A stretch of DNA of 64,000 nucleotides from Patescibacteria group bacterium (GTDB taxonomy: Bacteria; Patescibacteriota; Patescibacteriia; Patescibacteriales; XYC2-FULL-47-12), in the NCBI GenBank assembly GCA_041652935.1, contig JBAZGH010000001.1, forward strand, positions 7,393 through 71,392, written 5' to 3'. Positions 193 through 18,703 of the stretch are shown here, in pieces. Both the position numbers and the translations under genes were made by a program. Numbering within the stretch: the stretch's first letter is position 1; each line of letters opens with the position of its first letter. The notes below the pieces were generated by a model. The model did not search any database. It had not been told where the DNA came from and worked only from the letters and a program-made list of their open reading frames with translations.

Positions 193-221
193 TTGACACC
201 TTTTGATACTTCTGTTAAAAT
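193..221 (+). promoter_or_regulatory. sigma-70-like promoter with -35 TTGACA (193-198), 17-nt spacer and -10 TAAAAT (216-221). It is flanked by a direct repeat TTGATACT (183-190 and 203-210).
   Basis: Read directly. The hexamers and spacing are near consensus. The ATG at 228 lies about 7 nt after the -10, which suggests a leaderless transcript. Confidence 0.5.
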
Positions 222-227
222 ATTAAC

Positions 228-476: not shown

Positions 477-492
477 TAATTAAAAAATTAGT

Positions 493-1506
493 ATGTTTAA
501 GAAAAATTCAACTTTCATAATTGCCGAGGTCGGAATTAATCATAATGGCAATTTAAAAATTGCTAAAAAATTAATAACTGCTGCTAAAAAATGCGGCGCA
601 GACGCAGTAAAGTTTCAAAGCTTTAAAACCGAAGAATTAATCATAAAAGAATCAAAAAAAGCTGAGCACGTTAAAGGCAAGCAAAGTTTTTTTGAAATGA
701 TAAAAAGCTGGGAGCTTTCTGATAGTGATTATATAAAGTTGGCTGATTTTGCAAAAAAAGAAGGAATTATCTTTTTTGCTTCAATTTTTGGTAAACAATC
801 TTTAAATATAATGGAAAAAATTAAAGCGCCGCTTTATAAAATAGCATCTTGTGATTTAAATAATCATTATTTGTTAAAAAAAGTTGCTAAAACAAAAAAG
901 CCCATTATTATTTCAGTCGGCATGGGTGATATCAATGAAATAAACCAAGCAGTTAAGATTTTAGAAAAAAATAATAATGAATTAGGAATTTTGCATTGTG
1001 TTTCACTTTATCCGCCACAAGCGCAAGAATTGAATTTACAGCGTATCGCTTTATTAAAGAAAAAATTCCCCAAGCACATAGTTGGTTATTCTGACCATAC
1101 TTTAGATATTTTTACTCCAGCATCAACCATTCTCTTGGGAGCGGAAATCATTGAAAAGCATTTTACACTTGATAAGAATATGCCAGGTCCCGATCAGCCC
1201 AGTTCAGCCAATCCGGCAGAATTTAAGAAAATGGTTGAAGAAATCAGATTTTTAGAAAAGGCAATCAATCATCAGGAAAAAAAGATTACCCCATCAGCCC
1301 GAGAAAAAAAGATGAGTAAGGTTTTTAGGCGCAGTTTGGTTGCTGAAATTAATATTCCCAAAAATACAGTTATTACCGAGGCTATGTTGGGCGTTAAACG
1401 GCCGGGAACAGGCATTCCTTCTTCAGTGATGGATAAAGTAATAGGTAAAAAAGCAAAAATTAATTTAATAAAAAATGCGATGATAAAATACTCTAATTTA
1501 AAGTGA
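493..1506 (+). CDS. N-acetylneuraminate (nonulosonic acid) synthase of the NeuB/PseI/LegI family
   Basis: 337 aa. The N-terminus IAEVGINHNGNLKIAKKLI..GADAVKFQSF is a NeuB TIM-barrel signature. A C-terminal SAF-like region is present. Confidence 0.8.
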   Translation: MFKKNSTFIIAEVGINHNGNLKIAKKLITAAKKCGADAVKFQSFKTEELIIKESKKAEHVKGKQSFFEMIKSWELSDSDYIKLADFAKKEGIIFFASIFGKQSLNIMEKIKAPLYKIASCDLNNHYLLKKVAKTKKPIIISVGMGDINEINQAVKILEKNNNELGILHCVSLYPPQAQELNLQRIALLKKKFPKHIVGYSDHTLDIFTPASTILLGAEIIEKHFTLDKNMPGPDQPSSANPAEFKKMVEEIRFLEKAINHQEKKITPSAREKKMSKVFRRSLVAEINIPKNTVITEAMLGVKRPGTGIPSSVMDKVIGKKAKINLIKNAMIKYSNLK

Positions 1507-2480
1507 TGAAGAAGATAAATATTTTAGGTAAAATAAATAAAGATAATTATCAGGAATTCAACGATTCTGACTTTTTAGGTTATGAAGTTTATTTAAAATC
1601 TCAGGATGATTTTGAGCATTTACCGAAGATGACGCAACGATTAAATATTATATCAGTTCATCAGCCCAGCCGAAATTTTAATCTATGTTCAAATGATGAA
1701 GTTGGGAAAGAATCTTTTAATACAGTATTAAAAATGTTGGAATCACTTAACGCTGGCGGTTATCGAAAAATTGTAGTAGTTCATGGCGCTTTTTTCGATG
1801 AAGATGCTTCCAGTAAGCCAGATCATTTAAAAATTTTAGCAGAAAGAATAGATGAATTAGCGCAATTGTTTCCCAAGATTAAAATTACCCTAGAAAATGA
1901 TGTTTGGTTTTTTAATCAAAGTAAAAACAAGCGGGCATTATTAGTTGAAGCAGATGATTTTTTAGAATTAAAAAAATATTTAAAAACCAATCTTTATATT
2001 ACTTTAGATTTTGAACATATTTGGATATCGTCTGTCTTCAAAAATTTTATTGATAATAGCCCGCAATTTTATTTTGAAATTAAAAATTTAGCAGATTTAG
2101 ACAAACCAGAAGCAGCGGCTGTTAAAAAAGTATGGCTGGAATATTTGCAGAAAAATAAAAATAAAATGGATGATATGGCTTTAAAATTTTTAAAAGAATA
2201 TGAAAAATTAAAATCATCAATAATTAATTTTCATCTAAACGGTTCTAATATGCTTAAATATTGGTTTGATTCAAAAACATTTATTCCGCTTATAGGCGAG
2301 CATCTATGCATTAAAGATGTTGATGATATTTTAAATCACCAGCTTATTAAAAATAATATTAAAAATTTAACAGAACAAAGTGAAGCTAATTTAGTTTTAG
2401 AGATATGGCCTAGAAATACTAAACAATATGTTGTTGAATTAAAAAAATCAGGCCAGATAGCTAAAAAAATATATGCTTAA
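1503..2480 (+). CDS. Hypothetical protein, possibly a xylose-isomerase-like TIM-barrel sugar isomerase/epimerase
   Basis: 325 aa. Scattered His/Glu/Asp motifs (ISVHQP, LENDVWFF, DFEHIW, NFHLNGS, LEIWP) resemble the metal-binding residues of AP-endonuclease-2/xylose-isomerase-like barrels. Homology is weak. Confidence 0.3.
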   Translation: MMKKINILGKINKDNYQEFNDSDFLGYEVYLKSQDDFEHLPKMTQRLNIISVHQPSRNFNLCSNDEVGKESFNTVLKMLESLNAGGYRKIVVVHGAFFDEDASSKPDHLKILAERIDELAQLFPKIKITLENDVWFFNQSKNKRALLVEADDFLELKKYLKTNLYITLDFEHIWISSVFKNFIDNSPQFYFEIKNLADLDKPEAAAVKKVWLEYLQKNKNKMDDMALKFLKEYEKLKSSIINFHLNGSNMLKYWFDSKTFIPLIGEHLCIKDVDDILNHQLIKNNIKNLTEQSEANLVLEIWPRNTKQYVVELKKSGQIAKKIYA

Positions 2481-3114
2481 AAATAAAAAAAATATTATTA
2501 TTATCGGCGCGGGTGAAAATGGGGAAGTAGCTTTAAATTGTTTGCTGCAGTACAAAAAAGAATGGAAATTCATTGGTTTTTTAGATGATACTTTTAGCAA
2601 GAATAAAGAGCAAAAAATAATTGGAAAAGTAAATGATTATAAAAAGTATAAAAATAGTTATTTTTATATTGCAATCGGCGATAATTCGGCTCGCCGAAAG
2701 GTATTTGAAAGTTTAAAAAAAGCCAATTGTTTTTTTATTAATTTAATTCATCCCAAAGCTTTTATTGAAAAAAATGTTTGTTTGGGAGAAAGCGTTTTCG
2801 TAGGAGCAAACGTTTATGTTAATATTAAGTGCGCTATTGGCGATAATACTATTATAAACAACGGTTGTATTATTGAACATCATAATACCATCGGGCAACA
2901 TTGCCATTTAGCGCCCGGCGTAATTACCGGCGGAGGCGTGAAAATTAATAATAATGTTTTTATCGGACTAAACAGCGTAATTAGAGACCATGTTGAAATT
3001 AAAAATAATGTTTCTATTGGAATGGGATCTGTGATTACAAAAGACATTTCTTCAGGATTATTAGTTCATAATAATTTACGAATAAAAAGTAAAAAATATG
3101 GGCAAGGAAATTAA
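2473..3114 (+). CDS. Hexapeptide-repeat sugar O/N-acyltransferase (NeuD/PglD/PseH-like)
   Basis: 213 aa. The N-terminal Rossmann-like stretch IIIGAGENGEVALNCL is followed by left-handed beta-helix hexapeptide repeats (IG.N..I...C.I). Confidence 0.7.
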   Translation: MLKNKKNIIIIGAGENGEVALNCLLQYKKEWKFIGFLDDTFSKNKEQKIIGKVNDYKKYKNSYFYIAIGDNSARRKVFESLKKANCFFINLIHPKAFIEKNVCLGESVFVGANVYVNIKCAIGDNTIINNGCIIEHHNTIGQHCHLAPGVITGGGVKINNNVFIGLNSVIRDHVEIKNNVSIGMGSVITKDISSGLLVHNNLRIKSKKYGQGN

Positions 3115-3799
3115 AAAAGCAAAAAATATTTGTTTAATCCCGGCTCGAGGGGGGTCTAAAAGAATTCCTAAAAAAAATATTATTGATTTTTGCGGCAAGC
3201 CTTTAATAGCGCGCACAATTGAGGTTGCCATAAAATCAAAATTATTTAAAGAAATATATATTAGTTCTGATTCGGAAGAAATTTTAAAAATAGCTAGTCG
3301 TTATAAAGTCAAACAAATAAGACGACCAGTCAAACTCGCCAGCAGTAGTGCATTATTGGAAAATGTCACCCTGCATTTATTAAATAATATTTCGGATAAT
3401 TTTGATTATTTATGTCTGTTGATGCCCAATTGCCCCCTGCGCCTTTCGGAAGATATAAAAAAATCATATAAAAAATTAATAAAATCAAAAGCGAATTGTT
3501 TAATGAGCGTGGTTGATTATCATTGGTTAAATCCTTTCTGGGTCATGCAGGAAAAAAATAATCATCTAAAAATGCTTTTTGGCAATAAATATTTTGTTAA
3601 TAATTTTCAAAAATTGCCGCAAGATGTTTATTGCCCGACCGGCGTAGTACGCTGGGTCAAAATTAATAATTTTTTAAAAGAAAAAAAATATTATGGAAAA
3701 GATTTAATAAAATATGAAGTGCCTTTTGAAAGAGGGGTTGACATTGATACTTATCAGGATTTAGAGCTAGCTAAGAAGTTTTATAAAATATTAAAATAA
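3098..3799 (+). CDS. Acylneuraminate cytidylyltransferase (CMP-nonulosonic acid synthetase, NeuA/LegF-like)
   Basis: 233 aa. The N-terminal ICLIPARGGSKRIPKKNI is the CTP_transf_3 motif. Confidence 0.8.
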   Translation: MGKEIKKAKNICLIPARGGSKRIPKKNIIDFCGKPLIARTIEVAIKSKLFKEIYISSDSEEILKIASRYKVKQIRRPVKLASSSALLENVTLHLLNNISDNFDYLCLLMPNCPLRLSEDIKKSYKKLIKSKANCLMSVVDYHWLNPFWVMQEKNNHLKMLFGNKYFVNNFQKLPQDVYCPTGVVRWVKINNFLKEKKYYGKDLIKYEVPFERGVDIDTYQDLELAKKFYKILK

Positions 3800-3817
3800 T
3801 CCATTTAATTAAGAAGT

Positions 3818-4600
3818 ATGCCAAAAAAAATTAATGACGATAATTGGAAAATATGGGATGAATTTAATGTTTACGGTGATATTCTATATAAAAGAGCGAT
3901 TGGCAAAATAGAAGAGATGCAGTCAGCTAAAAGTATCTGTAAATTATTGCCGTCGTTTTATAAAAAGGGGATGAGTCTTTTGGATGTAGGGTGTGGAGCC
4001 GGGCATTATTTGCGGAGTTTGCAGTTAAGATTAGATAAAAATATAAAATATACGGGTGTTGACGCTACCAAGAATTATATTAAGTTGGCCAAAAAAGCAT
4101 TTGGTTCAAAAGCGAATTTTTTAACAGGCGACATTTTCAATTTGCCATTTAATGATAAAGCTTTTGATATTGTAATGTGTAATAATGTTATATTGCATTT
4201 ACCGCCGCCGCCGACAAAAGCAATTTCAGAATTAATTCGAGTAGCTAAAAAATATATAGTTATTCGTACTGTTATTGGTGAAAGAAATTATATAATTAAA
4301 GAGGTCAGAAATTTTAATGAAGGGGCAAAGCTTAAAGTTAAAGATGAAGATTTAATCGGCAAAAATGGATATCCGCTTTCTTATAATTTTTTTAATATGT
4401 ATACCACTGAATATTTAAAAGGTATCATTAATAGAATCGACAAAAATTTAGAGGTTAAGATTGTTTCTGATAATGAGTGGAAATCATTTAATAACAGAAA
4501 GATAGCCGGCGCTTTAGCTACTAAAGTTATTGACGGCAGGCAAGTTTCCGGAAATTTAATGCTTGACTGGAGATATATAATTGTAAAGAAAAAAATATAA
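3818..4600 (+). CDS. Class I SAM-dependent methyltransferase
   Basis: 260 aa. Motif I is LLDVGCGAGHY. Confidence 0.7.
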   Translation: MPKKINDDNWKIWDEFNVYGDILYKRAIGKIEEMQSAKSICKLLPSFYKKGMSLLDVGCGAGHYLRSLQLRLDKNIKYTGVDATKNYIKLAKKAFGSKANFLTGDIFNLPFNDKAFDIVMCNNVILHLPPPPTKAISELIRVAKKYIVIRTVIGERNYIIKEVRNFNEGAKLKVKDEDLIGKNGYPLSYNFFNMYTTEYLKGIINRIDKNLEVKIVSDNEWKSFNNRKIAGALATKVIDGRQVSGNLMLDWRYIIVKKKI

Positions 4601-4616
4601 AATTTATTTATCGTTT

Positions 4617-5747
4617 ATGAAGTTAAAAGAGTATCCCATAGCCAGACCGTTTATTGGCAAGAAAGAGGAGGGGTATGTTTTGGAAGTTTTACGCTCCGGT
4701 GTTTTAAGCATGGGAAAAAAGATTGAAGAATTTGAAAAATTATTTGCCAAGCATATTAGAACTAAATATGCCTGCGCGGTATCCAGTGGAACTGCTGGTC
4801 TTCATCTAATTATGATTGCAACGGATATTAAATCCGGAGATGAAGTAATTACCACTCCTTTTTCCTTTATAGCTTCAGCCAATTCTATTTTGTACGTTGG
4901 CGCTAAGCCGGTGTTTGTTGATATTAATCCTAATACATACAATATAGATGTTAATAAAATAGAAGAAAAAATTACCAAAAAAACTAAAGCTATTTTGGTG
5001 GTGCATATTTTTGGGCAAACAGCTGACATGAAGCCAATAAAAGCTATTGCCAAAAAATATAAGCTCAAAATTATTGAAGATGCCTGCGAGTCAATCAGCG
5101 CTTCTTATGATGGCCAACAGGCCGGAACCTTCGGCGAGTCAGCGGTATTTGCTTTTTATCCCAACAAGCAATTAACTACCGGAGAAGGCGGTATGATAGT
5201 TACAAATAAAAAGAAAATTTACGATTTATGCGTAAGCTTGCGCAACCAAGGGCGGGCAAAAAATATGCAATGGCTTGACCATGAATATTTAGGTTATAAT
5301 TATCGCATGGATGAAATGAGCGCGGCAGTAGGATTGGCTCAACTGGAAAAAATAAATTGGATGATTGCCGAACGTCGTAAAATCGCAAAATGGTATAATA
5401 AATATTTATCTTCTTATACTGATTTAGTACAGTTGCCGATAACCGCTAAGGGAAATAAACATAGCTGGTTCGTATATGTGATCAAATTAGTGCCAAAAAA
5501 TATTAATCGGAATAAAATTATAAATCAATTGAAACTTAAAAAAATTTATACTAAGCTCTATTTACCAGCAATTCATTTATTTGATTTTTATAGAAAGTTG
5601 CATGGTTATAAAAGGGGGGATTTTCCACAAACCGAAAAAGCCGCTGATGTATGCCTAGCCTTGCCTTTTTATATCGGCTTAAAGGAAAAAGATGTAAAAT
5701 ATATCGTTGATCAGTTATTAATCATTATAAAAAAATATGAAAAATAA
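4617..5747 (+). CDS. DegT/DnrJ/EryC1/StrS-family PLP-dependent sugar aminotransferase (PseC/LegC-like)
   Basis: 376 aa. It has the typical DegT layout, with AVSSGTAGLHL and a lysine-containing region. Confidence 0.8.
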   Translation: MKLKEYPIARPFIGKKEEGYVLEVLRSGVLSMGKKIEEFEKLFAKHIRTKYACAVSSGTAGLHLIMIATDIKSGDEVITTPFSFIASANSILYVGAKPVFVDINPNTYNIDVNKIEEKITKKTKAILVVHIFGQTADMKPIKAIAKKYKLKIIEDACESISASYDGQQAGTFGESAVFAFYPNKQLTTGEGGMIVTNKKKIYDLCVSLRNQGRAKNMQWLDHEYLGYNYRMDEMSAAVGLAQLEKINWMIAERRKIAKWYNKYLSSYTDLVQLPITAKGNKHSWFVYVIKLVPKNINRNKIINQLKLKKIYTKLYLPAIHLFDFYRKLHGYKRGDFPQTEKAADVCLALPFYIGLKEKDVKYIVDQLLIIIKKYEK

Positions 5748-6789
5748 ATTATTAAATGAATTTAAAGGTAAGCGAATTTTAGTGACTGGTGGAACAGGCT
5801 CTATCGGATCAACAATTGTTAAAGAGCTTTTAAAGTACCGACCGCGCCAAATTCGTATTTTTAGTCGTGATGAAACCAAGCAATTTGAATTAATGCATCA
5901 AATTAGTTCCTCAGTCCCAGTTAATTTTTTAATTGGTGATGTGCGGGATAAAGACCGTTTAAGCATGGCGATGGAAAATATTGATATTGTTTTTCACGCG
6001 GCAGCGCTTAAGCACGTAACGGCTTGCGAAAGAAATCCCTTCGAAGCGATGAAAACTAATGTTCAAGGGACGCAGAATATGATTGATTGCGCCTTTGCCA
6101 ATAAGGTTGATAAAGTGATCGTGATTTCCACTGATAAAGCAACCGACCCGGCTAATGTGATGGGGTGCACCAAACTTTTAGCTGAAAAAATGGTTTTAGC
6201 CAGCTTCTTTTATAAAGGGAACAAAAATACTAAAATTTGCTGTGTTCGGTTCGGCAATGTTTTAGGTTCTCGTGGTTCAGTAGTCCCTTTATTTATTAAT
6301 CAAATAAAACGTAATCAGCCAGTTACCATTACTGACCCCAACATGACCAGATTTTTCATGTCTATTGAACAAGCGGTTCAATTGGTATTTAAATCCGCTG
6401 TTATGACAAAAAATTGTGAAATTTTTGTATTAAAAATGCCGGTAATAGCCATTAAAGATCTAGCTAAAGCTGTTATTGAAATTTTTCAAGAAAAAAATAA
6501 AATTAAGTTAAATATCCCCATTAAAATTATTGGAAAAAGGGGAGGTGAACGGATTTACGAAAAGCTTTTAACCGCAGAGGAATCGTTGGGAGCGCTAGAG
6601 ACAGATGAGATGTTTATCGCTCTCCCAAGTTTAATAGATCCAAAACCGGGATATGAATTTTTAAAAGACAATTATTATCCTGGCGCCAAGAAAGCCAAAA
6701 TAGGGGAATACTTATCAAAAGATATTAAAAAAATGCCAATTAAAAAAATTAAGGAATTATTATTATCTAATAAAGATTTAGATTTTTAA
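5737..6789 (+). CDS. UDP-N-acetylglucosamine 4,6-dehydratase (PseB/CapD/LegB-like short-chain dehydratase)
   Basis: 350 aa. The N-terminal ILVTGGTGSIGS is an NAD(P)-binding motif, and the polysaccharide-dehydratase core is present. Confidence 0.8.
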   Translation: MKNKLLNEFKGKRILVTGGTGSIGSTIVKELLKYRPRQIRIFSRDETKQFELMHQISSSVPVNFLIGDVRDKDRLSMAMENIDIVFHAAALKHVTACERNPFEAMKTNVQGTQNMIDCAFANKVDKVIVISTDKATDPANVMGCTKLLAEKMVLASFFYKGNKNTKICCVRFGNVLGSRGSVVPLFINQIKRNQPVTITDPNMTRFFMSIEQAVQLVFKSAVMTKNCEIFVLKMPVIAIKDLAKAVIEIFQEKNKIKLNIPIKIIGKRGGERIYEKLLTAEESLGALETDEMFIALPSLIDPKPGYEFLKDNYYPGAKKAKIGEYLSKDIKKMPIKKIKELLLSNKDLDF

Positions 6790-6805
6790 AATATTAAAAA
6801 TTACT

Positions 6806-8599
6806 ATGTTTAGTATGTTCAAAAAATTATTTAATGCAGCCAAAATTTTTAAGCGCGCTTTCGGCCAACATAAGAAAGTTTTAGTGCTATTATTTTTCTT
6901 AAGTTTTTTAAACAGTATTTTAGAAGGAGTCGGAATTAGCGCCTTAATACCTTTCTTTTCTTTTATTGGGCATAATCAGTTTGGCAACACTGATTTAATT
7001 TCGCGATCAATAGAGAATTTTTTTATTTATTTACATATCCCATTTACTCTAAAATTTTTATTAATTTTTGTCTTATCCCTCTTTATATTGAAAGCAATTG
7101 TATTATTTTTTACTAATTTTATAGCTGCTTTAGTTACTACTAGTTATGAAAAAAATTTACGCAGCAATTTATTTAAGCTGACCCTATATGATTCATGGCC
7201 GCATTTAATCAAACAAAAAGTCGGGCATTTGGATCAATTGCTAGTTACTGACATAAACTGCAGCTCTAGTTTAATTTCCAGTATAGTTACCGGAGCGTTG
7301 ATGTTTACTAAATTAGTCGTCTATGTTTTAGTGGCTATAAATTTATCAATACCAATAACGCTTTTTGCTTTAATTTTAGGTCTGCTCACTTTTTTTATTT
7401 TTAAGCCGTTTTTTTATAAAAATCAAATTATGTCGCGTCGGGCATCTAATATGTATAAAGATTTAGCCCATTTTGTGAATGAGAATATAATTGGCATGAA
7501 AACCGTTAAATCAATGTTTGTGGAAAAATCAGTTATTGAGCGAGGGAAAAAATATTTTGAAGAACTTAGAAGTGTTAATCTTAAAGTAGCCGTCAGTCGG
7601 CATATTACCCACGCCTTAATGCAGCCGATTGGTTTTATTTTTATTATAGCGATATTCTCTTTTTCCTATAAAACTAATATTTTTAATTTTGCTTCTTTCG
7701 TTGTTATAGTATATGCTATTAATCAGATTTTTACTCAAATCCAGTCCGGTCAGGCGCATTTACATGGCATGATTTCATCAGCTCCATATCTAATGAATAT
7801 AATAAACTATCAAGAAATTGCTCGACAAAATATTGAAGAAGACAAAGGGAATAAAAAGTTTGTTTTTAATAATAATTTAGAACTCGCAGATGTTAATTTT
7901 AGTTACAATTCCAACCAAGAGACCTTAAGACATATAAATTTATTAATCAAAAAAGGAGATATGATTGGTTTAGTCGGCCATTCGGGTGCTGGCAAAACAA
8001 CAATGGTTGACTTGCTGTTGAGACTTTTTCAACCTGATAGTGGAAATATTTTGTTAGATGGAAGTAATATTAATGATTTTAGCTTAAGAGAATGGCGAAC
8101 AAATGTCGGCTATGTGTCTCAAGATATTTTTTTATTAAATGATACGATTGAAAATAATATTAAATTTTATAACAATAGTTTAACTAAAAAAGAAGTAGAA
8201 AAATTTGCTAAAATTGCTAATATTTTTGATTTTGTTTCAAGTTTGCCAGATAAATTTTCGGCAGTTATTGGTGAAAGAGGAATATTGTTGTCCGGAGGGC
8301 AAAGACAGCGCATTATTTTAGCTAGAATTCTAGCGAAAAATCCTAAAATTTTAATTTTAGATGAAGCAACCAGCGCTTTAGATAATGAATCAGAAATTCA
8401 GATTCAGAAAGCGATAGAAAATTTAAAGGGAAAAATTACAGTTTTAGCCATTGCTCATAGATTGACAACAGTTAAAAATTGCGATCGAATTATTGTTTTA
8501 AAAGATGGAGAAATAATTGAAAATGGAGAGCCGAAAGAATTACTCAATAACAAAAATTCTGCTTTTTATGAGATGTATAATATAAAAAATAATAGTTGA
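6806..8599 (+). CDS. ABC transporter with fused permease and ATPase (MsbA-like exporter)
   Basis: 597 aa. There is an N-terminal six-helix transmembrane domain. Walker A is GHSGAGKTT, the signature is LSGGQRQR and Walker B is ILILDEAT. Confidence 0.8.
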   Translation: MFSMFKKLFNAAKIFKRAFGQHKKVLVLLFFLSFLNSILEGVGISALIPFFSFIGHNQFGNTDLISRSIENFFIYLHIPFTLKFLLIFVLSLFILKAIVLFFTNFIAALVTTSYEKNLRSNLFKLTLYDSWPHLIKQKVGHLDQLLVTDINCSSSLISSIVTGALMFTKLVVYVLVAINLSIPITLFALILGLLTFFIFKPFFYKNQIMSRRASNMYKDLAHFVNENIIGMKTVKSMFVEKSVIERGKKYFEELRSVNLKVAVSRHITHALMQPIGFIFIIAIFSFSYKTNIFNFASFVVIVYAINQIFTQIQSGQAHLHGMISSAPYLMNIINYQEIARQNIEEDKGNKKFVFNNNLELADVNFSYNSNQETLRHINLLIKKGDMIGLVGHSGAGKTTMVDLLLRLFQPDSGNILLDGSNINDFSLREWRTNVGYVSQDIFLLNDTIENNIKFYNNSLTKKEVEKFAKIANIFDFVSSLPDKFSAVIGERGILLSGGQRQRIILARILAKNPKILILDEATSALDNESEIQIQKAIENLKGKITVLAIAHRLTTVKNCDRIIVLKDGEIIENGEPKELLNNKNSAFYEMYNIKNNS

Positions 8600-10044
8600 T
8601 TTATATGAAGATATTTGTAATTTGGCCATTTAAAGAATCGGAAATATCCATTTTATTTTCAGAACTAGAAAAAAATGGTCATGAAGTTGTGTATTGGGTG
8701 GGTCTTAAAGAGGGCGAGAAATATAAACCTACCGGAGCTGTTTTTCATGATCATAATGACGCCTGGGTTGGATTGCCGTCCAAAGAAGTGGATGCTTCTT
8801 CTTTTGTGCCGCCGGACGAGGAATTATTAAAAAAGCTTCATAAGACTGAGTCGTATCTTTTAACTATGATGAATAAGCGATATTATTATATGTCAGTAGA
8901 TGAACGTAAACATTTTTATTATAATATGTTGCAGTACTGGAAAGGTGTAATTGACAAATACAAACCTGATTTAATTATTTTTCCAACCATACCCCATACT
9001 GTCTATAATTATTTAATTTATGAATTAGCCATACTGTTTAATATTAAGACAGTCATGTTTGAGGATATCCAGGTAGGAGAAAGAATATTATTATATAATA
9101 TTTGGGAAGAGGGTTGTTTGGATTTGAAAAAAAAATTAATTATGAATAAAGATAAAATATTTTTATTAACAGATTTAAGTAGTGATTTACAAGAATATTT
9201 TAATTTACAGACTAAAGACGGAAGAGGCGATGCCACTCCTCCTTATATGTCGCATTATAAAAAGGTTTATACCGGCGTTAATTTTTTTAGGCATAAATTC
9301 AAGATTATTATTAATGCCATTAAAAATGGATCAATTTTAAAAAGAGTTTTAGATTTTATAGTCAAAATTAAAAAAAATCCACAAAAAGAATACAATAAAT
9401 TACAAATAAAGCCTGACTACAGCAAGAGCTTTGTTTATATTGCTCTTTGTTATCAACCTGAGCGCACTACTAGTCCACAAGGAGGAGTATTTGTGGATCA
9501 AATACTAATGATAGAAACACTATCTGCTGCGTTACCAGAGGGTTGGGTATTATATGTAAAAGAACATCCATCGCAAATGTGGCTTAATGGCTTGAACTAT
9601 TCTAGTTGTCGCTATGAAGGATATTACAAGAGGATTGCGCAGTTAAAAAATACTCATATTATTCCTGTGGAAACTAATTCATTTGAATTAATAAAAAAAT
9701 CTCAAGCAGTAGCGACAGTTACTGGGACAGTTGGCTGGGAAGCGGCTCTTCGGATGAAGCCAGCAATTATTTTCGGTTATGCGTGGTACCATGATTGTCC
9801 GGGAATATTTAGAGTTAATAGCGCCCAGACTTGCCGCCAAGTTTTTTCGGATATAACTAATGGATTTTCTATTAGAAAGCAAGATATTATAAATTACCTT
9901 AAGAGCATAGATAATGTTGCGGTCAATAGCCAAATAGATAGAATTTCAGGTTCGATATTACGGCCATCAAAATTATCGAATTCAGAAATGATGACTAATA
10001 TTACAAAAGCAATTATTAAAAATATAAAAAAAATTATTAATTAA
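8596..10044 (+). CDS. Putative GT-B-type transferase, either TagF/TagB-like CDP-alcohol phosphotransferase or sialyltransferase-like
   Basis: 482 aa. CYQPERT resembles the LYAPTWR motif and VKEHPSQ resembles the K-x-HP motif of TagF-family and GT-B sialyltransferases. The assignment rests on motifs only. Confidence 0.35.
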   Translation: MIYMKIFVIWPFKESEISILFSELEKNGHEVVYWVGLKEGEKYKPTGAVFHDHNDAWVGLPSKEVDASSFVPPDEELLKKLHKTESYLLTMMNKRYYYMSVDERKHFYYNMLQYWKGVIDKYKPDLIIFPTIPHTVYNYLIYELAILFNIKTVMFEDIQVGERILLYNIWEEGCLDLKKKLIMNKDKIFLLTDLSSDLQEYFNLQTKDGRGDATPPYMSHYKKVYTGVNFFRHKFKIIINAIKNGSILKRVLDFIVKIKKNPQKEYNKLQIKPDYSKSFVYIALCYQPERTTSPQGGVFVDQILMIETLSAALPEGWVLYVKEHPSQMWLNGLNYSSCRYEGYYKRIAQLKNTHIIPVETNSFELIKKSQAVATVTGTVGWEAALRMKPAIIFGYAWYHDCPGIFRVNSAQTCRQVFSDITNGFSIRKQDIINYLKSIDNVAVNSQIDRISGSILRPSKLSNSEMMTNITKAIIKNIKKIIN

Positions 10045-10052
10045 AATTTTAT

Positions 10053-11048
10053 ATGTTAGATTTTTTAAAAGATAAAACTATTTTAGTAACCGGAGGAACT
10101 GGCTCTTTTGGCAAAAATTTTGTTAAGTATTTATTAAAAAATTCTGAGGTAAAAAAAATTATTATTTTTAGTCGTGATGAATTAAAACAATCACAAATGC
10201 AGGCGGAATTAAATAGAGATGATATATTGCGTTTTTTTGTTGGTGATGTGCGTGATTTAGGGCGTTTACAAAGAGCGTTCCGTGGCGTGGATATTATCAT
10301 CCATGCCGCCGCGCTTAAACAAGTGCCGACTTTAGAATATAATCCATTTGAAGCTGTTAAAACAAATATTCTTGGAAGTCAAAATGTTATTGATGCCGCC
10401 ATAGATCAAAAAGTGGAAAAAGTAATATTAATATCCACAGATAAGGCGGCCCAGCCAGCTAATTTATATGGATCCACCAAGCATTGCGCGGAAAGGCTAT
10501 TCGTTAGTGGTAATTCTTATGCCAACAGACAAACTAAATTTTCCTGCGTGCGTTATGGCAACGTAATCGGTAGCCGCGGAAGTATTATTGAAACTTTATT
10601 AAAAAAGGCTTCGCAAGAAAAAATATCAATTACCGATGAGCGGATGACTAGATTTTGGATTACGCTTGAGCAGAGTTTTGAATTAGTAATATTTGCCTTA
10701 GCTAATATGGGGGGTGGAGAAATTTTTATTCCCAAAATACCAAGTATGAAATTAGTAGATATTTTTGACTCCATTGCGCCGAATGCGAGAAGAGAAATTA
10801 TTGGTATTCGACCGGGGGAAAAATTACATGAAGTTTTACTGACATTAGAAGAAGCCAGGCATGCGGTCGATTTTGGGGAGGTTTTTATTATTTTACCTGA
10901 ATATAATTTTTTTAATGTTGGCATGTTTGATAAATACTTTAAAACAGGAAAAGAATTAGATTTAAACTTTATTTATGCCAGTGACAATAATAATAATTGG
11001 TTGACTAAGGATGAATTAATAAAAATTATTAATAATCAATCTAAATGA
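10053..11048 (+). CDS. pseB: UDP-GlcNAc 4,6-dehydratase (PseB/FlaA1-type)
   Basis: 331 aa. ILVTGGTGSFGKNFVKYLL is the canonical PseB N-terminus. It is a paralogue of the 5737 gene. Confidence 0.8.
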   Translation: MLDFLKDKTILVTGGTGSFGKNFVKYLLKNSEVKKIIIFSRDELKQSQMQAELNRDDILRFFVGDVRDLGRLQRAFRGVDIIIHAAALKQVPTLEYNPFEAVKTNILGSQNVIDAAIDQKVEKVILISTDKAAQPANLYGSTKHCAERLFVSGNSYANRQTKFSCVRYGNVIGSRGSIIETLLKKASQEKISITDERMTRFWITLEQSFELVIFALANMGGGEIFIPKIPSMKLVDIFDSIAPNARREIIGIRPGEKLHEVLLTLEEARHAVDFGEVFIILPEYNFFNVGMFDKYFKTGKELDLNFIYASDNNNNWLTKDELIKIINNQSK

Positions 11049-12157
11049 TACCCTATGGACGCCAAAATTTAAATAAAGATGATATTGATTTAGTAGTTAA
11101 AGCATTAAAATCAGATTGGCTTACACAAGGCCCGAAAATTTTAGAATTTGAGAAAGCGCTAGCTAAATATTGCGGAGCTAAATACGCAGCAACTGTTTCT
11201 AGCGGGACAGCCGCACTACACCTAGCTTATTTAACAGCTGATTTTAAAAAGGGAGATGAAGTAATAACTACACCAAATACTTTTGTAGCTACATCAAATA
11301 TGCTGTTAGCCGTTCATGTTAAGCCGGTATTTTGTGATATTAGAGAAGATACTTATAATATTGATGAAAGTAAAATAGAAAAATTAATTACTAGTAAGAC
11401 AAAAGCGATTGTTCCAGTTCATTTTGCTGGACATTCTTGCGAGATGAGAAAAATAAAAAAAATTGCTAAAAAATATAATTTAATAATTATCGAGGACGCC
11501 TGTCATGCGTTAGGTGGAAAATATAAAAATATAAAAATTGGTAGTTGCAAATTTTCTGATATGGCGGTTTTTAGTTTTCATGCTGTAAAACCCATTACCA
11601 CGGGAGAGGGCGGAGCAATCTTAACTAATAACAAGAAATATTATGAAAAATTAATTTCTTTGCGCAGCCATGGAATTCATAAAGATAAAAATGGTAAAAA
11701 TATCATGACAGCGTTAGGATATAATTATCGAATTACCGATTTTCAAGCCGCCCTAGGTATAAATCAACTAAAAAAATTAGATTTTTTTATAAAAAAAAGA
11801 AAAGAAGTTGCGGCATGGTACAAAAAAGAATTAAGTGTATTAAAAGAAATTATTTTGCCGCAAGAAAAAAAAGATTGTTATAGCGGTTGGCATATTTATG
11901 TCATTAGAGTAAAAAATAAAAAAAATAAAGATGGCTTAATGAAATATTTAAGACAAAATGGCATAGGGGTTAATTTTCATTATCCGGCGGTTTACACCCA
12001 CCCCTATTACCAAAAAATAGGCTATCAAAATCTGCGTTTAAAATGCGTGGAAGAATATAACAATACCTGCGTCACCTTGCCTTGCCATACTCTATTGTCA
12101 AGAAAAGATATAGGGTACATAGGGGAATTAGTTAAAAATTATTTTAAAATTAAATAA
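11045..12157 (+). CDS. pseC: DegT-family aminotransferase (PseC-type UDP-4-amino-4,6-dideoxy-sugar aminotransferase)
   Basis: 370 aa. It is a paralogue of the 4617 gene and has the same DegT motifs. Confidence 0.8.
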   Translation: MIPYGRQNLNKDDIDLVVKALKSDWLTQGPKILEFEKALAKYCGAKYAATVSSGTAALHLAYLTADFKKGDEVITTPNTFVATSNMLLAVHVKPVFCDIREDTYNIDESKIEKLITSKTKAIVPVHFAGHSCEMRKIKKIAKKYNLIIIEDACHALGGKYKNIKIGSCKFSDMAVFSFHAVKPITTGEGGAILTNNKKYYEKLISLRSHGIHKDKNGKNIMTALGYNYRITDFQAALGINQLKKLDFFIKKRKEVAAWYKKELSVLKEIILPQEKKDCYSGWHIYVIRVKNKKNKDGLMKYLRQNGIGVNFHYPAVYTHPYYQKIGYQNLRLKCVEEYNNTCVTLPCHTLLSRKDIGYIGELVKNYFKIK

Positions 12158-12164
12158 ATTTATT

Positions 12165-13166
12165 ATGGATTATAATATTAAAAAAGAAATAAATCAATTT
12201 ATTTATAAATACCAAAAAGAAGATGTTAATGAGAAGTTGGGAAAAATTTTAGGGGATGATTTTAAAAAATATCGGAATGATTTTAATAAAACTCAGAATT
12301 ACCATGAAACAAAATTTATACCTGATTTTCCCATAACGATTTCATTAGAATTGGTCAATAGATGTAATTTGGATTGCATAATGTGTCTAGAAAATCAACA
12401 TACTCAGCCAAAATCACAACTAAGTTTAGATGATATAAAAAGGATTTTAGATGAAAGCCAGAAAAATAATATGCCATCTATTGAACTAGGACTAGGGTCG
12501 GAGGTGATGATGTATAAAGATATTCAGGAAGTAGTTATGCTTGTTAAAAAAGCTGGTATTTTAGATGTATTTTTTAGCACTAACGGCATATTATTAAATG
12601 ACGAAATAATTCGAGCAATTATTGATAATAAAATTACCCGAATAAAAATATCATTAGACGCCGCTACTGAAGAAACTTATAAAAAAATAAGGCGTAGAGC
12701 CCCCTCATTAAAAATAACTGAAGACAATATTAAAAAAATAATCGCTTGGAAAAAGAAGAAAAATAGTCCGATTCCTGTAATTCGCCTTAGTTTTATAATA
12801 ATGGATATTAATAAGCATGAAATAAAACAGTTTATAGATAAATGGAAAGACGAAGTTGATTATATAGATTTCCAAAAACTCATTGATTTTTCACATGTTG
12901 GTAAAACGGTGTTACTTGATGAAGTTAAACAAGAAGTAATTAAAGATTCTTTTTGCGCCTATCCTTTCTATAGCTTAAATATTTGGGCTAATGGAGATGT
13001 AAGCCCGTGTTGCACTTTTTATGGAAAGGACTTGATTATGGGGAATATTCATCAGCAAACCCTGAAAGAAATATGGAATAGTAAAAAAATGAAATTAATT
13101 CGTGAACAGCTTTATTCTAAAAAATTCAATCCAATTTGTCAAAAATGTTTATATTTTAGAGATTAA
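12165..13166 (+). CDS. Radical SAM protein with a C-terminal SPASM/twitch cysteine cluster
   Basis: 333 aa. CNLDCIMC is a CX3CX2C motif. The C-terminus carries C...CC...CQKC. Confidence 0.7.
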   Translation: MDYNIKKEINQFIYKYQKEDVNEKLGKILGDDFKKYRNDFNKTQNYHETKFIPDFPITISLELVNRCNLDCIMCLENQHTQPKSQLSLDDIKRILDESQKNNMPSIELGLGSEVMMYKDIQEVVMLVKKAGILDVFFSTNGILLNDEIIRAIIDNKITRIKISLDAATEETYKKIRRRAPSLKITEDNIKKIIAWKKKKNSPIPVIRLSFIIMDINKHEIKQFIDKWKDEVDYIDFQKLIDFSHVGKTVLLDEVKQEVIKDSFCAYPFYSLNIWANGDVSPCCTFYGKDLIMGNIHQQTLKEIWNSKKMKLIREQLYSKKFNPICQKCLYFRD

Positions 13167-13218
13167 AATTAATAGATGGTAGTTTTTAAACTAAAAATTT
13201 AATTGTAAAATAAGCACT

Positions 13219-14160
13219 ATGAATATATTAATAGTTGGTTTTGGCTCAATTGGACAAAGGCATTATAAAAATTTATTAATGCTGGGTTTTAAAGATATCT
13301 ATATTTACGACACCGATAGCGCAAAAATTAATAATAAAAATTTCAAAGTAATAAAGAAATTTGATAAAAAAAGTTTAGAAATATTTGACATAGCCTTTAT
13401 CTGTAACCCCAATAATAAGCACATTAATTCAGCGATTAAATGCGCGGAAGCAGGCTGTCATTTATTTATTGAAAAACCTCTTTCGCATACTTTGCAAGAT
13501 ATTGATAAACTACAAAAAATTTGTCAGAGTAAAAAACTAATAACTATGATTGGTTGTAATATGCGTTTTCATCCGTGTTTAAAATTTATCAAAAATTATT
13601 TAAATAAAAATAAATTGGGTAAAATATACAGCGTCCATCATGAATTCGGCCATTATTTGCCATATTGGCGAGTTGGGCAGGATTATCGTAAAAATTATGC
13701 CGTTAAAAAATCTACCGGTGGCGGAATTATTTTAGACGATATACACGAATTTGATTTATTATTTTGGTTTAACGATTTTAAAAAAATAAAAAATTCAAAA
13801 TTTATTTATAATAAATTAAGTAATCTAGAAATTAAAACAGAGGATTTCTGTTTAGCTGTTTTTCAATTTACTAATAAAATTATTGGCTCTGTACAATGTG
13901 ATTATTTACAACAAAATTATACTAGAAATTGTAAAATTATAGGCGTTAAGGGAAATTTAGAGTGGGACTTCAATGAAAATGTTGTTTGGTTAAAAAACAA
14001 ACAAAATGAGAAAAAATTATTTGCGGTTGATAATTTTAATTTTAATAAAGTTTATTTAGAAGAAATAAAATATTTTTTTAGTTGTATTTCTAAGAAAAAA
14101 GAAACTTTTAATGATACAAAAATTGCTTATGGAGTCTTGAAGTATTGTATAAATAGATAA
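13219..14160 (+). CDS. Gfo/Idh/MocA-family NAD(P)-dependent oxidoreductase
   Basis: 313 aa. The N-terminal ILIVGFGSIGQRH is a Rossmann motif, followed by an EKP motif. Confidence 0.7.
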   Translation: MNILIVGFGSIGQRHYKNLLMLGFKDIYIYDTDSAKINNKNFKVIKKFDKKSLEIFDIAFICNPNNKHINSAIKCAEAGCHLFIEKPLSHTLQDIDKLQKICQSKKLITMIGCNMRFHPCLKFIKNYLNKNKLGKIYSVHHEFGHYLPYWRVGQDYRKNYAVKKSTGGGIILDDIHEFDLLFWFNDFKKIKNSKFIYNKLSNLEIKTEDFCLAVFQFTNKIIGSVQCDYLQQNYTRNCKIIGVKGNLEWDFNENVVWLKNKQNEKKLFAVDNFNFNKVYLEEIKYFFSCISKKKETFNDTKIAYGVLKYCINR

Positions 14161-14163
14161 AAT

Positions 14164-14955
14164 ATGAAAAAAAATAAACAAAAAAACCTATGCATAATCC
14201 AAGCCCGTTATGGATCGACTCGTTTACCGGGCAAAGTTTTAAAGAAGGTTGATGGGCTTACTTTACTTGAATATGAAATAATTAGAGTTAAGCAGGCGAA
14301 AAAAATTGATAAAATTGTCATAGCAACCACTAAAAATAAATCCGACAAGAAAATTGAAGAATTATGCCAAAGAATAAAAATAGATTGTTTTTGCGGTTCA
14401 GAAAATGACGTATTAGATCGTTACTATCAATGTTCCTTGGAATACCCCGAATATAAAAATGTTATTCGGATTACTGGAGATTGTCCATTAATTGATCCGG
14501 TGATAATTGATAAAGTCATTAGTTTTTTTACCAAGAGAAAGCTTGATTATACTAGTAATATTGAGTTAGATACTTTTCCTGACGGTATGGATGTAGAAAT
14601 TTTTAAAAAAGACATTTTAATTGAAACTGCTAAAAGAGCTAAATTACCCTCAGAACGAGAACATGTTACTTATTATATCCGAAAAAATAAAAAATATAAA
14701 AAAGGAAATTTAACCGCGTGTAATAACTGGTCTCATTTTCGCTTAACAGTCGATGAACCAATTGATTTTGAGGTTATAAAATTTTTAATTAAAAATAGTA
14801 AAATTACTGATGGATACTTAGATTATATCTCGCTTTTAACTAAGAATCCAAAAGTAATGCTTAGTAATATTAATATTATTAGAAATGAGTGGAAATTAAA
14901 AGCTTTAAAAGAAGACGGAGAATTTAAAAAACAATATGCCAAAAAAATTCACTAA
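14164..14955 (+). CDS. CMP-sugar cytidylyltransferase (SpsF/PseF-like)
   Basis: 263 aa. CIIQARYGSTRLPGKVL is the SpsF/PseF-type motif. Confidence 0.75.
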   Translation: MKKNKQKNLCIIQARYGSTRLPGKVLKKVDGLTLLEYEIIRVKQAKKIDKIVIATTKNKSDKKIEELCQRIKIDCFCGSENDVLDRYYQCSLEYPEYKNVIRITGDCPLIDPVIIDKVISFFTKRKLDYTSNIELDTFPDGMDVEIFKKDILIETAKRAKLPSEREHVTYYIRKNKKYKKGNLTACNNWSHFRLTVDEPIDFEVIKFLIKNSKITDGYLDYISLLTKNPKVMLSNINIIRNEWKLKALKEDGEFKKQYAKKIH

Positions 14956-16225
14956 AAGTCAACAATTATTTAATAAAACTAGCAAAAGTATACCTCTTGC
15001 TTCGCAAACTTTTTCCAAAAGTTATTTGCAATATGTGAGAGGGCAGGCACCTTTATTTATCACACATGGCAGTGGTTCTCACGTTTGGGATGTTGACGGC
15101 AACAAATATGTGGATATGATAAACGGCTTATTGCCAGTAATTTTAGGATATCAATATAAAGCAGTTGATGATGCGATAAAAAATCAGCTAAATAAAGGAA
15201 TAATTTTTTCTCTGCCGTCCCCATTAGAATGTGAATTAGCTAGAATTTTGATTAAGCATATCCCTTGCGCTGAGATGGTCCGTTTTGGCAAAAACGGCTC
15301 CGATGTTACTTCTGGCGCAGTAAGGTTGGCACGGGCAATAACAGGTCGCAGTCATATTGCTTGTTGCGGTTATCATGGTTGGCATGATTGGTATATAGGG
15401 ACTACTGTTAGAAATTTAGGTGTGCCGAAAGAAACACAAAAATTGACCCATAGTTTTAAATATAATGATGTGGATTCTTTAAAAGAAGTTTTTAGAAAAA
15501 ATAAGAATAGAATTGCAGCTGTAATTATGGAACCGATGAACTATGTTGATTTACGGCCTGGATTTTTACAGCAGGTAAAGAAAATAACGCACGACAAAGG
15601 CGCCTTATTGATTTTTGATGAAATTATAACCGGTTTCAGGTATGATTTGGGGGGAGCGCAAAAATTATTCAGAATAACTCCAGATTTAGCAACTTTTGGG
15701 AAGGCAATGGCAAATGGCATGCCAATTGCCGCATTGGTCGGCAAAAAAAAATATATGAAACACGCTGAAGATATCTTTTACTCGTTTACTATGGGGGGCG
15801 AGGCATTATCTTTGGCAGCGGCAATAGCAACTATTAAAGAACTTGAACAGAAAAAAGTTATAAAGTATATTTGGAAACTTGGGAAATATTTGCAGGATAA
15901 TACCAATAATTTTTTGAAAGAAAATAAATTAGATGAGATTATAAAGGTGCGGGGAAAACCTTGTTGGCAGGTATTTATTATCAAGCCATCAGGAAAATTT
16001 AGCGATCTGGAAATAAAAAGCTACTTGCAGCAGGAAATACTACAGGCAGGATTTTTATGGTATGGACAGCATAATATGAGTTTCAGCCATACAAAAAAAG
16101 ATATGGACAGATTATTAGGAGTTTATAAAAAAGTATTTAAAAATTTAAAGGGGTTAATTGATAGTGGAAGATTAAGGGGGGAATTGAGAGGGCAACCGAT
16201 AACTAATATTTTTAAGGTTAGGTAA
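14936..16225 (+). CDS. Class-III PLP aminotransferase (glutamate-1-semialdehyde aminomutase-like)
   Basis: 429 aa. It has the AT-III fold motifs, including FDEIITGFR and a lysine region. Confidence 0.7.
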   Translation: MPKKFTKSQQLFNKTSKSIPLASQTFSKSYLQYVRGQAPLFITHGSGSHVWDVDGNKYVDMINGLLPVILGYQYKAVDDAIKNQLNKGIIFSLPSPLECELARILIKHIPCAEMVRFGKNGSDVTSGAVRLARAITGRSHIACCGYHGWHDWYIGTTVRNLGVPKETQKLTHSFKYNDVDSLKEVFRKNKNRIAAVIMEPMNYVDLRPGFLQQVKKITHDKGALLIFDEIITGFRYDLGGAQKLFRITPDLATFGKAMANGMPIAALVGKKKYMKHAEDIFYSFTMGGEALSLAAAIATIKELEQKKVIKYIWKLGKYLQDNTNNFLKENKLDEIIKVRGKPCWQVFIIKPSGKFSDLEIKSYLQQEILQAGFLWYGQHNMSFSHTKKDMDRLLGVYKKVFKNLKGLIDSGRLRGELRGQPITNIFKVR

Positions 16226-16226
16226 T

Positions 16227-16838
16227 ATGAATTCAACTAAGGTGTTATTTATTTTAGGTGGTGGATTAGTAAAAAAAGATAATAAATGGAGAACTACCAA
16301 TTTCAAGGAAGGAGATAAATTTGGCGCTTCAGGCGATAGGTTAAGGGTGGTGGCTGGAAGCTGTTTATATAAAAATAATTCAGAATATTTAATAATAACA
16401 TCAGGCGGCAAGGGGCAATATAAAAACGTTCCAAATTCTCTAACTGTAGCCGAGGTAATGAGACGAGAATTATTAGAGCTAGGCGTATTAGAGGAGACAA
16501 TAATAAAGGAAGAGGAATCTAGCAATACTTGGGAGCAATTACAACAGTTAAAAAAGATTATTCAAAAAGAAAATTTTATTAAAATAAAAATTCTTTCCAG
16601 TAGATATCATTTACCACGTGTGCGGGCGATGATTGAAGTTGATGGCAGATTAAATGAAATATTTAAAAAAGAAGTATTAGAATTAGTTTCTGCTGAAGAA
16701 ATTTTAATTAAACACAATGAAAATAAGTGGAAGAATTTTATTGAAAAAGCATATTCAAGCGAGGCTATGAAAAAAAGAATTACTTTAGAAAAACAGGGGA
16801 TTAAACAAATTAAAAACGGTACTTATAGTTTAAAATAA
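16227..16838 (+). CDS. DUF218 (YdcF/SanA/ElyC-like) domain protein
   Basis: 203 aa. The stretch ILGGG...ITSGGKG...SRYHLPR is typical of DUF218. Confidence 0.55.
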   Translation: MNSTKVLFILGGGLVKKDNKWRTTNFKEGDKFGASGDRLRVVAGSCLYKNNSEYLIITSGGKGQYKNVPNSLTVAEVMRRELLELGVLEETIIKEEESSNTWEQLQQLKKIIQKENFIKIKILSSRYHLPRVRAMIEVDGRLNEIFKKEVLELVSAEEILIKHNENKWKNFIEKAYSSEAMKKRITLEKQGIKQIKNGTYSLK

Positions 16839-16840
16839 TT

Positions 16841-17905: not shown

Positions 17906-17911
17906 AATTAA

Positions 17912-18700: not shown

Positions 18701-18703
18701 TAC

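Follow-up and report, generated by a model that had tools for sequence, protein, structure and literature searches.

A KpsS1-like putative CMP-nonulosonate glycosyltransferase encoded next to an ABC exporter gene in Patescibacteria

We studied a stretch of 64,000 nt of contig JBAZGH010000001.1 from a Patescibacteria group bacterium (the window in the following, with position 1 being its first nucleotide), and therein two adjacent genes for an ATP-binding cassette (ABC) exporter and for a glycosyltransferase candidate, below called the transferase. As had been predicted from the sequence, the two open reading frames (ORFs) are located at 6806-8599 and 8596-10044, i.e., the exporter followed by the transferase, between two modules for the biosynthesis of nonulosonic acids (NulO). 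Given its homology and predicted fold, together with conserved motifs and synteny, we consider it likely that the transferase is a glycosyltransferase with CMP-NulO as donor, that its lipid-linked acceptor resides on the inner side of the membrane, and that it is coupled to ABC export. That is, the transferase-exporter pair probably attaches NulO to a lipid-linked surface glycan. The respective features are listed below. Here, A1 denotes an alignment of 31 homologues (44-67% identity), motif counts are given over loci (n=87), and residues are numbered according to the 479-aa form of the transferase.

6806-8599, + strand: half-transporter of the ABCB/type IV fold, proposed NulO-glycan exporter or flippase (PF00664 and PF00005)
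8605-10044, + strand: putative CMP-nonulosonate glycosyltransferase of 479 aa, KpsS1-like and of the PF05159 superfamily (homology, predicted fold, motifs)
8992-8997, + strand: P130-H131, invariant in A1, at a beta-strand end of the N-terminal domain, 4 residues after the position equivalent to Glu132 of KpsS1
9118-9402, + strand: basic, amphipathic helical insert between the Rossmann-like domains, aa 172-266 (AlphaFold2 secondary structure)
9454-9462, + strand: invariant Q284-P285-E286 in the C-terminal domain, behind its first strand, 87/87 homologues, aligned with H301-P302-E303 of the KpsS1 family
9559-9570, + strand: K319-E320-H321-P322, the HP (CMP-binding/leaving-group) motif, with K, E, and H invariant in A1, aligned with K336-D337-H338 of KpsS1

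The transferase ORF (8596-10044, +) encodes the predicted 482 aa when read from the TTG at 8596. This ORF is real, with translation probably starting from the ATG at 8605, which yields 479 aa (MKIF...) and agrees with the 100% identical database protein P0001, annotated as 'MAG: hypothetical protein WC323_00075 [Patescibacteria group bacterium]'. This ATG sits 5 nt past the stop codon of the ABC gene (TGA 8597-8599), a spacing that is consistent with translational coupling.

The sole Pfam match of the transferase is PF05159 (Capsule_synth) with 40.2 bits and an E-value of 3.6e-10 (gathering threshold 20 bits), which covers aa 301-408 only. This family was among those proposed for a hidden Markov model (HMM) check by the original prediction, and it scores above threshold in 31/31 homologues (best E 5e-13), which show no other Pfam matches. 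The A1 profile also matches KpsC crystal structures (E 4.7e-7). By sequence, the transferase is placed in the superfamily of ulosonic-acid transferases (PF05159; CAZy families GT107/GT118/GT99/GT140); a second PF05159 paralogue was not found in the window. A relationship to TagF-family phosphotransferases or GT-B sialyltransferases, as originally suggested, is rejected, since PF04464 (TagF), GT52, and GT38 match none of the 31 members even at E<=10. Furthermore, no D/E-D/E-G motif of the GT52, GT38, and GT80 sialyltransferases is conserved in A1, though HP is present.

The family is large, i.e., it comprises 2,665 clusters of 50% identity at E<=1e-30 and 6,969 at E<=1e-10. Among GTDB species genomes, 373 relatives were found. 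About 70 of the best 80 of these 373 carry titles of the Candidate Phyla Radiation (CPR)/Patescibacteria (Falkow-, Magasanik-, Giovannoni-, Portnoy-, Kaiser-, Harrison-, Taylor-, and Komeilibacteria, Paceibacterota, and others), and the remaining ones are named 'bacterium' or 'uncultured Gammaproteobacteria'. Annotations within the family read 'hypothetical protein' or 'capsular polysaccharide biosynthesis protein'.

The closest CHARACTERISED relative of the transferase is KpsS1 of A. baumannii (GT118). As far as sequence comparison can tell, this supports the predicted role as CMP-nonulosonate transferase, since KpsS1 is a characterised, retaining Pse5Ac7Ac (pseudaminic acid, Pse) transferase that founded CAZy family GT118 (PMC12887879). 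For comparison, a tblastn search on records labelled as plasmids led to an A. baumannii chromosome (L091) with a 480-aa ORF at 11254-12696. This ORF is located 3' of homologues of PseB, PseC, PseF, PseG, PseH, and PseI as well as of a 410-aa ORF without Pfam match, and 5' of an EpsG/Wzy-like gene. Given this KL2-type gene arrangement and the presence of Y131-E132, we take the ORF to be KpsS1.

BLASTP aligns the transferase with KpsS1 over 211 aa at 28% identity (E 5e-18), while hhalign relates the CPR family to KpsS1 over 440 columns with a probability of 98.8%. When using an alignment of 27 KpsS1-family sequences, the profile-profile comparison with the CPR family results in a probability of 99.9% and E 7e-32 over 348 columns. 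The respective KpsS1-family HMM scores the transferase with 92 bits versus 40 bits for PF05159. Judged on similarity rather than on CAZy's own criteria, the full-length similarity expected for GT118 is seen in the sequences, with the N-terminal ~100 aa lacking a confident alignment. Common and invariant to both families are P-E, K..H, the Glu of G(W/Y)EA, and PxYM within the insert, i.e., the KpsS1-family invariants H301-P302-E303, K336, H338, and E388 align with invariants of the CPR family. From the H-P-E / K-D-H signature of GT118, P-E and K..H are kept, with Q replacing H and E replacing D before the His.

Both strings highlighted by the original prediction, CYQPERT and VKEHPSQ, are present in the translation. 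From the proposed Y-x-P-x-R motif, however, only P285 is invariant while Y283 and R287 vary, such that the conserved motif is QPE (87/87). In contrast, the HP motif is indeed conserved among homologues: P322 is found in 30/31 sequences of A1 and the whole KEHP in 82/87 loci. Further invariants of A1 are E379, F390-G391, and W394 as well as E82 of the N-terminal domain. Glu132 of the YE motif is the proposed general base of KpsS1 (PMC12887879). By alignment, E286 is a candidate catalytic carboxylate of the transferase, and H131 a candidate general base that may substitute for Glu132. Among distant members, P0185 (KENR) and P0255 (KEHG) keep QPE but no longer show an intact HP motif, its His or Pro being lost. 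The latter (Rickettsiales, L090) is 1037 aa long with ~500 extra C-terminal residues, and a second PF05159 gene follows its own.

The AlphaFold2 model based on the 31-sequence alignment (pLDDT 90.8, pTM 0.89) shows two Rossmann-like halves (~aa 1-165 and 275-440), an ~95-aa helical insert (172-266), and a C-terminal helix. The predicted structure, i.e., two Rossmann-like alpha/beta domains, is in accordance with the GT-B fold expected by the original prediction. Each of the 50 Foldseek matches listed has a GT-B fold (probability 1.00), and the best TM-scores are those to the GT99 module of WbbB. Within the insert, which contains the PxY(M) motif common to the KpsS1 family, aa 213-266 carry a mean net charge of +11 (range +6 to +14, 31 homologues), and its helices show hydrophobic moments of 0.55-0.65. 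Judged from the model, the insert may serve as a membrane or lipid-acceptor binding element. Since it is basic and amphipathic and no transmembrane segment was found in the transferase, the data fit a soluble, cytoplasmic enzyme that is peripherally associated with the membrane.

[quoted passage not shown] The families GT99, GT107, and GT140 are defined by HP together with QXXXD, in which the Asp serves as nucleophile in a double displacement; KpsC/KpsS and WbbB take CMP-ulosonates as donors, modify lipid-linked acceptors on the inner side of the membrane, and function in ABC-transporter-dependent pathways (PMC10148158, PMC12887879). KEHP of the transferase aligns with KVHP of KpsC, i.e., the HP motif of the Kdo transferases is present. 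Q284 aligns with Q156 of KpsC, which places T288 at the position of D160 (low local alignment confidence, consistent spacing). We looked for a KpsC-type nucleophile in the family but found none: the position is occupied by T, S, N, A, or V in 87/87 homologues and is never acidic.

For 81 loci, sufficient sequence 5' of the transferase gene was available. In 54 of them, the gene directly upstream has the same orientation and encodes an ABC homologue (35-55% identical), mostly at gaps of a few bases. Among the 54 loci of at least 15 kb, the ABC gene is present in 50 and, where not adjacent, is mostly found elsewhere in the locus. A NeuB or CMP-synthase gene is part of 46/54 of these long loci, and both PseB-like and DegT genes are part of 44/54. 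The pairing is therefore conserved across CPR genomes, which supports the functional link between exporter and transferase put forward by the original prediction.

In several loci (e.g., L005 and L007), the pair directly follows arrays of GT4 genes. By analogy to what is known of O-antigen systems, this layout looks like an ABC-transporter-dependent polymer pathway. A homologue of the small DNA-binding protein HTH_17 directly precedes the ABC gene in L003, L005, and L006, and an HTH_17 homologue was detected in 13 of the 54 long loci (at least 15 kb). Within the window, module 1 separates HTH_17 from the ABC gene, as if a second sugar cassette had entered an HTH_17-ABC-transferase core.

In the distant member P0267 (821 aa, L088 10001-12466), a Wzt/TagH-type ABC ATPase (aa 76-207) is fused to a full-length transferase domain (aa 324-814). 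The P0267 gene is preceded by an ABC-2 permease gene within a legionaminic-acid-type cluster that also holds WecA-like and O-antigen-ligase (Wzy_C) genes. In some Wzt-type ABC ATPases, the capped glycan terminus is recognised by a carbohydrate-binding module at the C-terminus. The fusion suggests that terminal sugar addition is coupled to export. Further homologues, annotated as 'hypothetical protein', reside in NulO clusters with ABC transporters of a Rickettsiales MAG (metagenome-assembled genome) and of a Rhizobium plasmid. On the latter (Rhizobium sp. WL3, NZ_CP042825.1, L092 10298-16147), four consecutive 'hypothetical proteins' of ~450-510 aa are encoded, one of which is 30% identical to the transferase, and the NulO cluster also includes ABC genes of the Wzm/Wzt type as well as WbuZ/HisH genes for acetamidino formation.

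The exporter ORF (6806-8599, +) encodes 597 aa, and the database gene call is 594 aa long with an N-terminus shorter by 3 aa. It is composed of ABC_membrane and ABC_tran with intact Walker A, signature, Walker B, and H-loop, and the nearest solved half-transporters are Sav1866 and MsbA. Its original description as 'MsbA-like' holds for the fold class but not beyond, i.e., the scores are far below the NCBIfam equivalog cut-offs for MsbA (341 vs 602 bits), HepA (336 vs 725), and PglK (240 vs 1000).

Taken together, we propose the following course. CMP-NulO would be made by the flanking modules and bound by the C-terminal Rossmann-like domain of the transferase, most simply the Pse-like sugar of module 2. 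By homology, His321 of KEHP would be placed at the phosphate and aid the departure of CMP, and Glu286 of QPE would be located at the anomeric centre as catalytic carboxylate. The NulO would then be moved to a lipid-linked glycan at the cytoplasmic face of the membrane, for which the acceptor is possibly primed by the neighbouring phosphoglycosyltransferase. Finally, a dimer of the presumably translationally coupled ABCB-type half-transporter would flip or export the product to the CPR cell surface.

Several observations weigh against this proposal. The overall identity to KpsS1 is only ~20%, and the first ~100 residues are not confidently aligned. The proposed KpsS1 base Glu132 is not conserved and aligns with F126-P127, which is variable in the CPR family. 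A few family members lack the His of the HP motif. Since the Asp of QXXXD is replaced by Thr/Ser, the chemistry of the Kdo enzymes is also not simply transferable. The top-ranked Foldseek matches are UDP-GlcNAc 2-epimerases, with low TM-scores (0.24-0.33). With regard to the context, NeuB/cytidylyltransferase genes are absent within 10 kb in 8/54 long loci, the window combines two NulO pathways with a single transferase and no further glycosyltransferase in the cluster, and the exporter sequence is of a generic ABCB type without substrate-specific signature.

The 2-epimerase matches, which include NeuC (E 1e-9 to 1e-7), lead to the main rival, i.e., the transferase could be the missing nucleotide-sugar hydrolase or hydrolysing 2-epimerase that substitutes for PseG or NeuC/LegG. 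Homologues of PseG (GT28-like) and NeuC/LegG (Epimerase_2) were found neither in the two modules nor elsewhere in the 64-kb window (Pfam; tblastn with both), and PseG is itself a hydrolase of GT-B fold. However, sequence homology points to KpsS1/KpsC and not to Epimerase_2 or GT28, the constant partner is an ABC exporter rather than a biosynthetic gene, one copy faces two pathways, and a fusion to a Wzt ATPase exists. As an Epimerase_2 gene accompanies the transferase in 20/54 loci (16/38 of the NeuB-positive ones), together with the KpsS1 homology, we judge such a substitute improbable. A beta-Kdo transferase like KpsS/KpsC or WbbB, which adds a Kdo primer or cap to an ABC-exported polymer while the NulO genes serve another enzyme, would agree with a PF05159 member that matches KpsC structures and with the ABC-transporter-dependent pathways of KpsS/KpsC and WbbB (PMC10148158, PMC12887879). 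It is nevertheless very hard to reconcile with the lack of the defining Asp in 87/87 homologues, with the transferase being nearer to KpsS1 than to the general PF05159 model, and with cluster cytidylyltransferases that are part of modules with NeuB-type synthases; no cluster gene matches the Kdo-8-phosphate synthase family. We give even less credence to a TagF/TagB-like transferase of CDP-glycerol or polyol-phosphate that provides a teichoic-acid-like polymer for ABC export. The GT-B fold is common to the TagF family and the HP-motif sialyltransferases, NulO transferases of T. forsythia have been called TagB-like (PMC5420450), and the CPR locus L005 shows true Glyphos_transf and TagD-like genes downstream of the pair. 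Yet the TagF-like gene of L005 encodes a separate protein, the strong homology is that to KpsS1, and, as reported above, PF04464 finds none of the 31 members.

A further alternative concerns the exporter, which could be an unrelated lipid or drug exporter whose adjacency is mere operon packing, such that the NulO glycan exits otherwise, e.g., via a MurJ/Wzx-type flippase. In its favour, the sequence has its best matches in P-glycoprotein, Sav1866, and MsbA, a MurJ/MOP-family gene is present at 27425-29077, and KpsS1 itself operates in a Wzx/Wzy pathway (PMC4487303). On the other hand, same-strand adjacency is kept in 54/81 loci though the transferases are only 36-67% identical to the window protein, the cluster of the window shows no Wzx or Wzy gene, and in L088 a transferase was independently fused to a different ABC type (Wzt), which hints at the same functional link. 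Overall, we regard a chance neighbourhood as unlikely.

Beyond the preferred reading of a CMP-NulO transferase coupled to export, a bolder one can be sketched, which we put forward as speculation that may well fail. Therein, the CPR proteins would form a new CAZy-level family that is sister to GT118, in which Glu (QPE) and His (P130-H131) replace the Asp nucleophile and the Glu base. Together with the dedicated ABCB-type exporter and the HTH_17 regulator, this would make up a Patescibacteria-wide, ABC-transporter-dependent NulO coat of ultrasmall episymbionts. The transferase might even touch the transporter, a contact that is proposed since the Wzt fusion suggests it, and NulO addition could gate export.

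The exporter-transferase pair is part of a single + strand operon of ~20 genes that spans 1-20042 of the window. Its G+C content is 0.27-0.33 compared to 0.35-0.46 across the remainder (20043-64000). As the glycan operon is thereby far below the housekeeping remainder, horizontal acquisition or different compositional constraints are suggested. The operon features around the pair and the gene that follows are:

193-221, + strand: Sigma-70-like promoter candidate, TTGACA-17-TAAAAT with TG, top-scoring site in 1-20000 (11/12), just 5' of the HTH_17 gene
228-476, + strand: small DNA-binding protein of the HTH_17 type, 82 aa, at the operon head and probably a regulator (PF12728, E 9e-12)
493-6789, + strand: NulO biosynthesis module 1 (Pfam)
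10053-20042, + strand: NulO biosynthesis module 2, pseudaminic-acid-like (Pfam, NCBIfam)
20051-21433, - strand: polyprenyl-phosphate glycosylphosphotransferase (Bac_transf, 460 aa), convergent with the operon (TIGR03025 369 bits, cut-off 295; PF02397)

Scans of the operon for promoters and terminators gave overall counts no higher than chance, and the candidate at 193-221 is supported by its position only. The glycosylphosphotransferase is a candidate initiator of the lipid-linked acceptor; its link to the transferase is weak, as only 4/54 loci have a homologue in the vicinity of the transferase gene.

NulO modules flank the pair on both sides, and each provides one set of NeuB synthase, CTP_transf_3 cytidylyltransferase, Polysacc_synt_2 dehydratase, and DegT aminotransferase. 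Module 1 adds to these an AP_endonuc_2 TIM barrel, a PglD-like acetyltransferase, and a methyltransferase. Module 2 is composed of PseB-like and PseC-like enzymes, a radical SAM/SPASM protein, a GFO_IDH oxidoreductase, CTP_transf_3, a class-III aminotransferase, DUF218, NeuB (PseI-like), a methyltransferase, a formyltransferase, and a PIG-L deacetylase. Its enzymes are 51%, 44%, and 49% identical to A. baumannii PsaA, PsaB, and PsaF, respectively, by which module 2 is classed as pseudaminic-acid-like. Since the enzymes of module 1 show only 34-41% identity to A. baumannii Pse enzymes, we do not assign its sugar type.

Candidates for the removal of the nucleotide before NeuB condensation are DUF218 (16227-16838), the AP_endonuc_2 TIM barrel (1503-2480), and PIG-L (19347-20042). 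The PseG/NeuC gap of the window recurs in locus L003. Module 2 also holds unusual tailoring genes (12165-13166, 14936-16225, and 18704-20042), i.e., for a radical SAM/SPASM protein, for a class-III aminotransferase that resembles glutamate-1-semialdehyde aminomutase, and for a formyltransferase together with the PIG-L deacetylase. Its NulO is thus probably heavily modified and may be a new sugar.

Downstream of the NulO cluster, we observe a B12-binding radical SAM gene (21627-23297) and, at a distance of 3 kb, a BNR/Asp-box beta-propeller protein (24497-25612) with Sortilin-Vps10 and PSII_BNR matches and a BNR_2 match below threshold. The rest of the window is made up of housekeeping genes (RRF, RseP, MurJ, LepA, RecJ, PGK, iPGM, and others). 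Therein, 54232-55821 and 55809-57395 are tandem, overlapping paralogues of cofactor-independent phosphoglycerate mutase (iPGM_N and Metalloenzyme).

To our knowledge, KpsS1 was the first Pse transferase shown in vitro, and we know of only a handful of characterised transferases for bacterial sialic-acid-like sugars. The kind of enzyme is known, i.e., KpsS1 is characterised, and from 2014-15 onward the role of NulO transferase has been assigned to PF05159 genes that neighbour NulO modules (PMC4487303). New is a large family, here mainly from CPR, that is ~20% identical to KpsS1, with an active-site signature of its own and an ABCB exporter as constant partner. In the literature searched, we found no paper that links CPR bacteria with nonulosonic acids.

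The family adds thousands of sequences to the few characterised NulO transferases. Its distinct signature (QPE/KEHP, without QXXXD and without YE) is useful for the dissection of the mechanism and for the chemo-enzymatic synthesis of NulO glycosides. The data indicate that a 20-kb operon is devoted to NulO surface glycans in many Patescibacteria, which have small genomes and a life attached to host cells. Such glycans could matter in host attachment, phage resistance, or immune evasion. In the few cultivable lineages, the conserved transferase-exporter pair offers a genetic handle.

Compared to KpsS1 (A. baumannii KL2, GT118, Pse5Ac7Ac alpha-2,6), the transferase is of nearly equal length (479 vs 480 aa), shows the same predicted succession of N-terminal Rossmann domain, helical insert with PxYM, and C-terminal Rossmann domain, and its gene likewise adjoins a Pse-type module. 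The differences are QPE instead of HPE, KEHP instead of KDHx, and the Glu132 that is not kept. Furthermore, KpsS1 belongs to a Wzx/Wzy capsule pathway of a diderm, whereas the transferase is paired with an ABCB-type exporter gene in CPR bacteria. With KpsC/KpsS (GT107) and the N-terminal module of WbbB (GT99), it has in common PF05159 or the same modified GT-B fold, HP at the corresponding site, and, within the C-terminal domain (to which detectable similarity is confined), a Gln behind the first strand. While these are retaining beta-Kdo transferases, the transferase has Thr288 in place of the Asp nucleophile, and its expected donor is a 9-carbon NulO rather than Kdo.

The T. forsythia proteins Tanf_01245 and TFUB4_00887 are transferases of Pse/legionaminic acid derivatives for the O-glycan and are genetically implicated in the terminal addition of NulO to a lipid-linked glycan and described as TagB-like with DXD and D/E-D/E-G motifs (PMC5420450). 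Like the transferase, they are HP-motif proteins of GT-B type. The DXD and D/E-D/E-G motifs were not identified in the transferase, and the similarity to the NCBIfam model 'BFO_1060 family glycosyltransferase' is weak and located round the HP region (E 2.4e-4, 20 bits, cut-off 200 bits). In P0267, the transferase domain takes the C-terminal position of a Wzt-like ATPase, where some Wzt carry the glycan-binding module; unlike this arrangement, the window pair has a separate ABCB-type transporter. With PglK (C. jejuni) and MsbA, i.e., ABC flippases of lipid-linked glycans, this exporter shares domain organisation, fold class, and a gene location among glycan biosynthesis genes. Its scores (240-340 bits vs cut-offs of 600-1000) show that it is no orthologue of either one, and, in contrast to PglK and MsbA, it is kept as a gene pair with a specific transferase.

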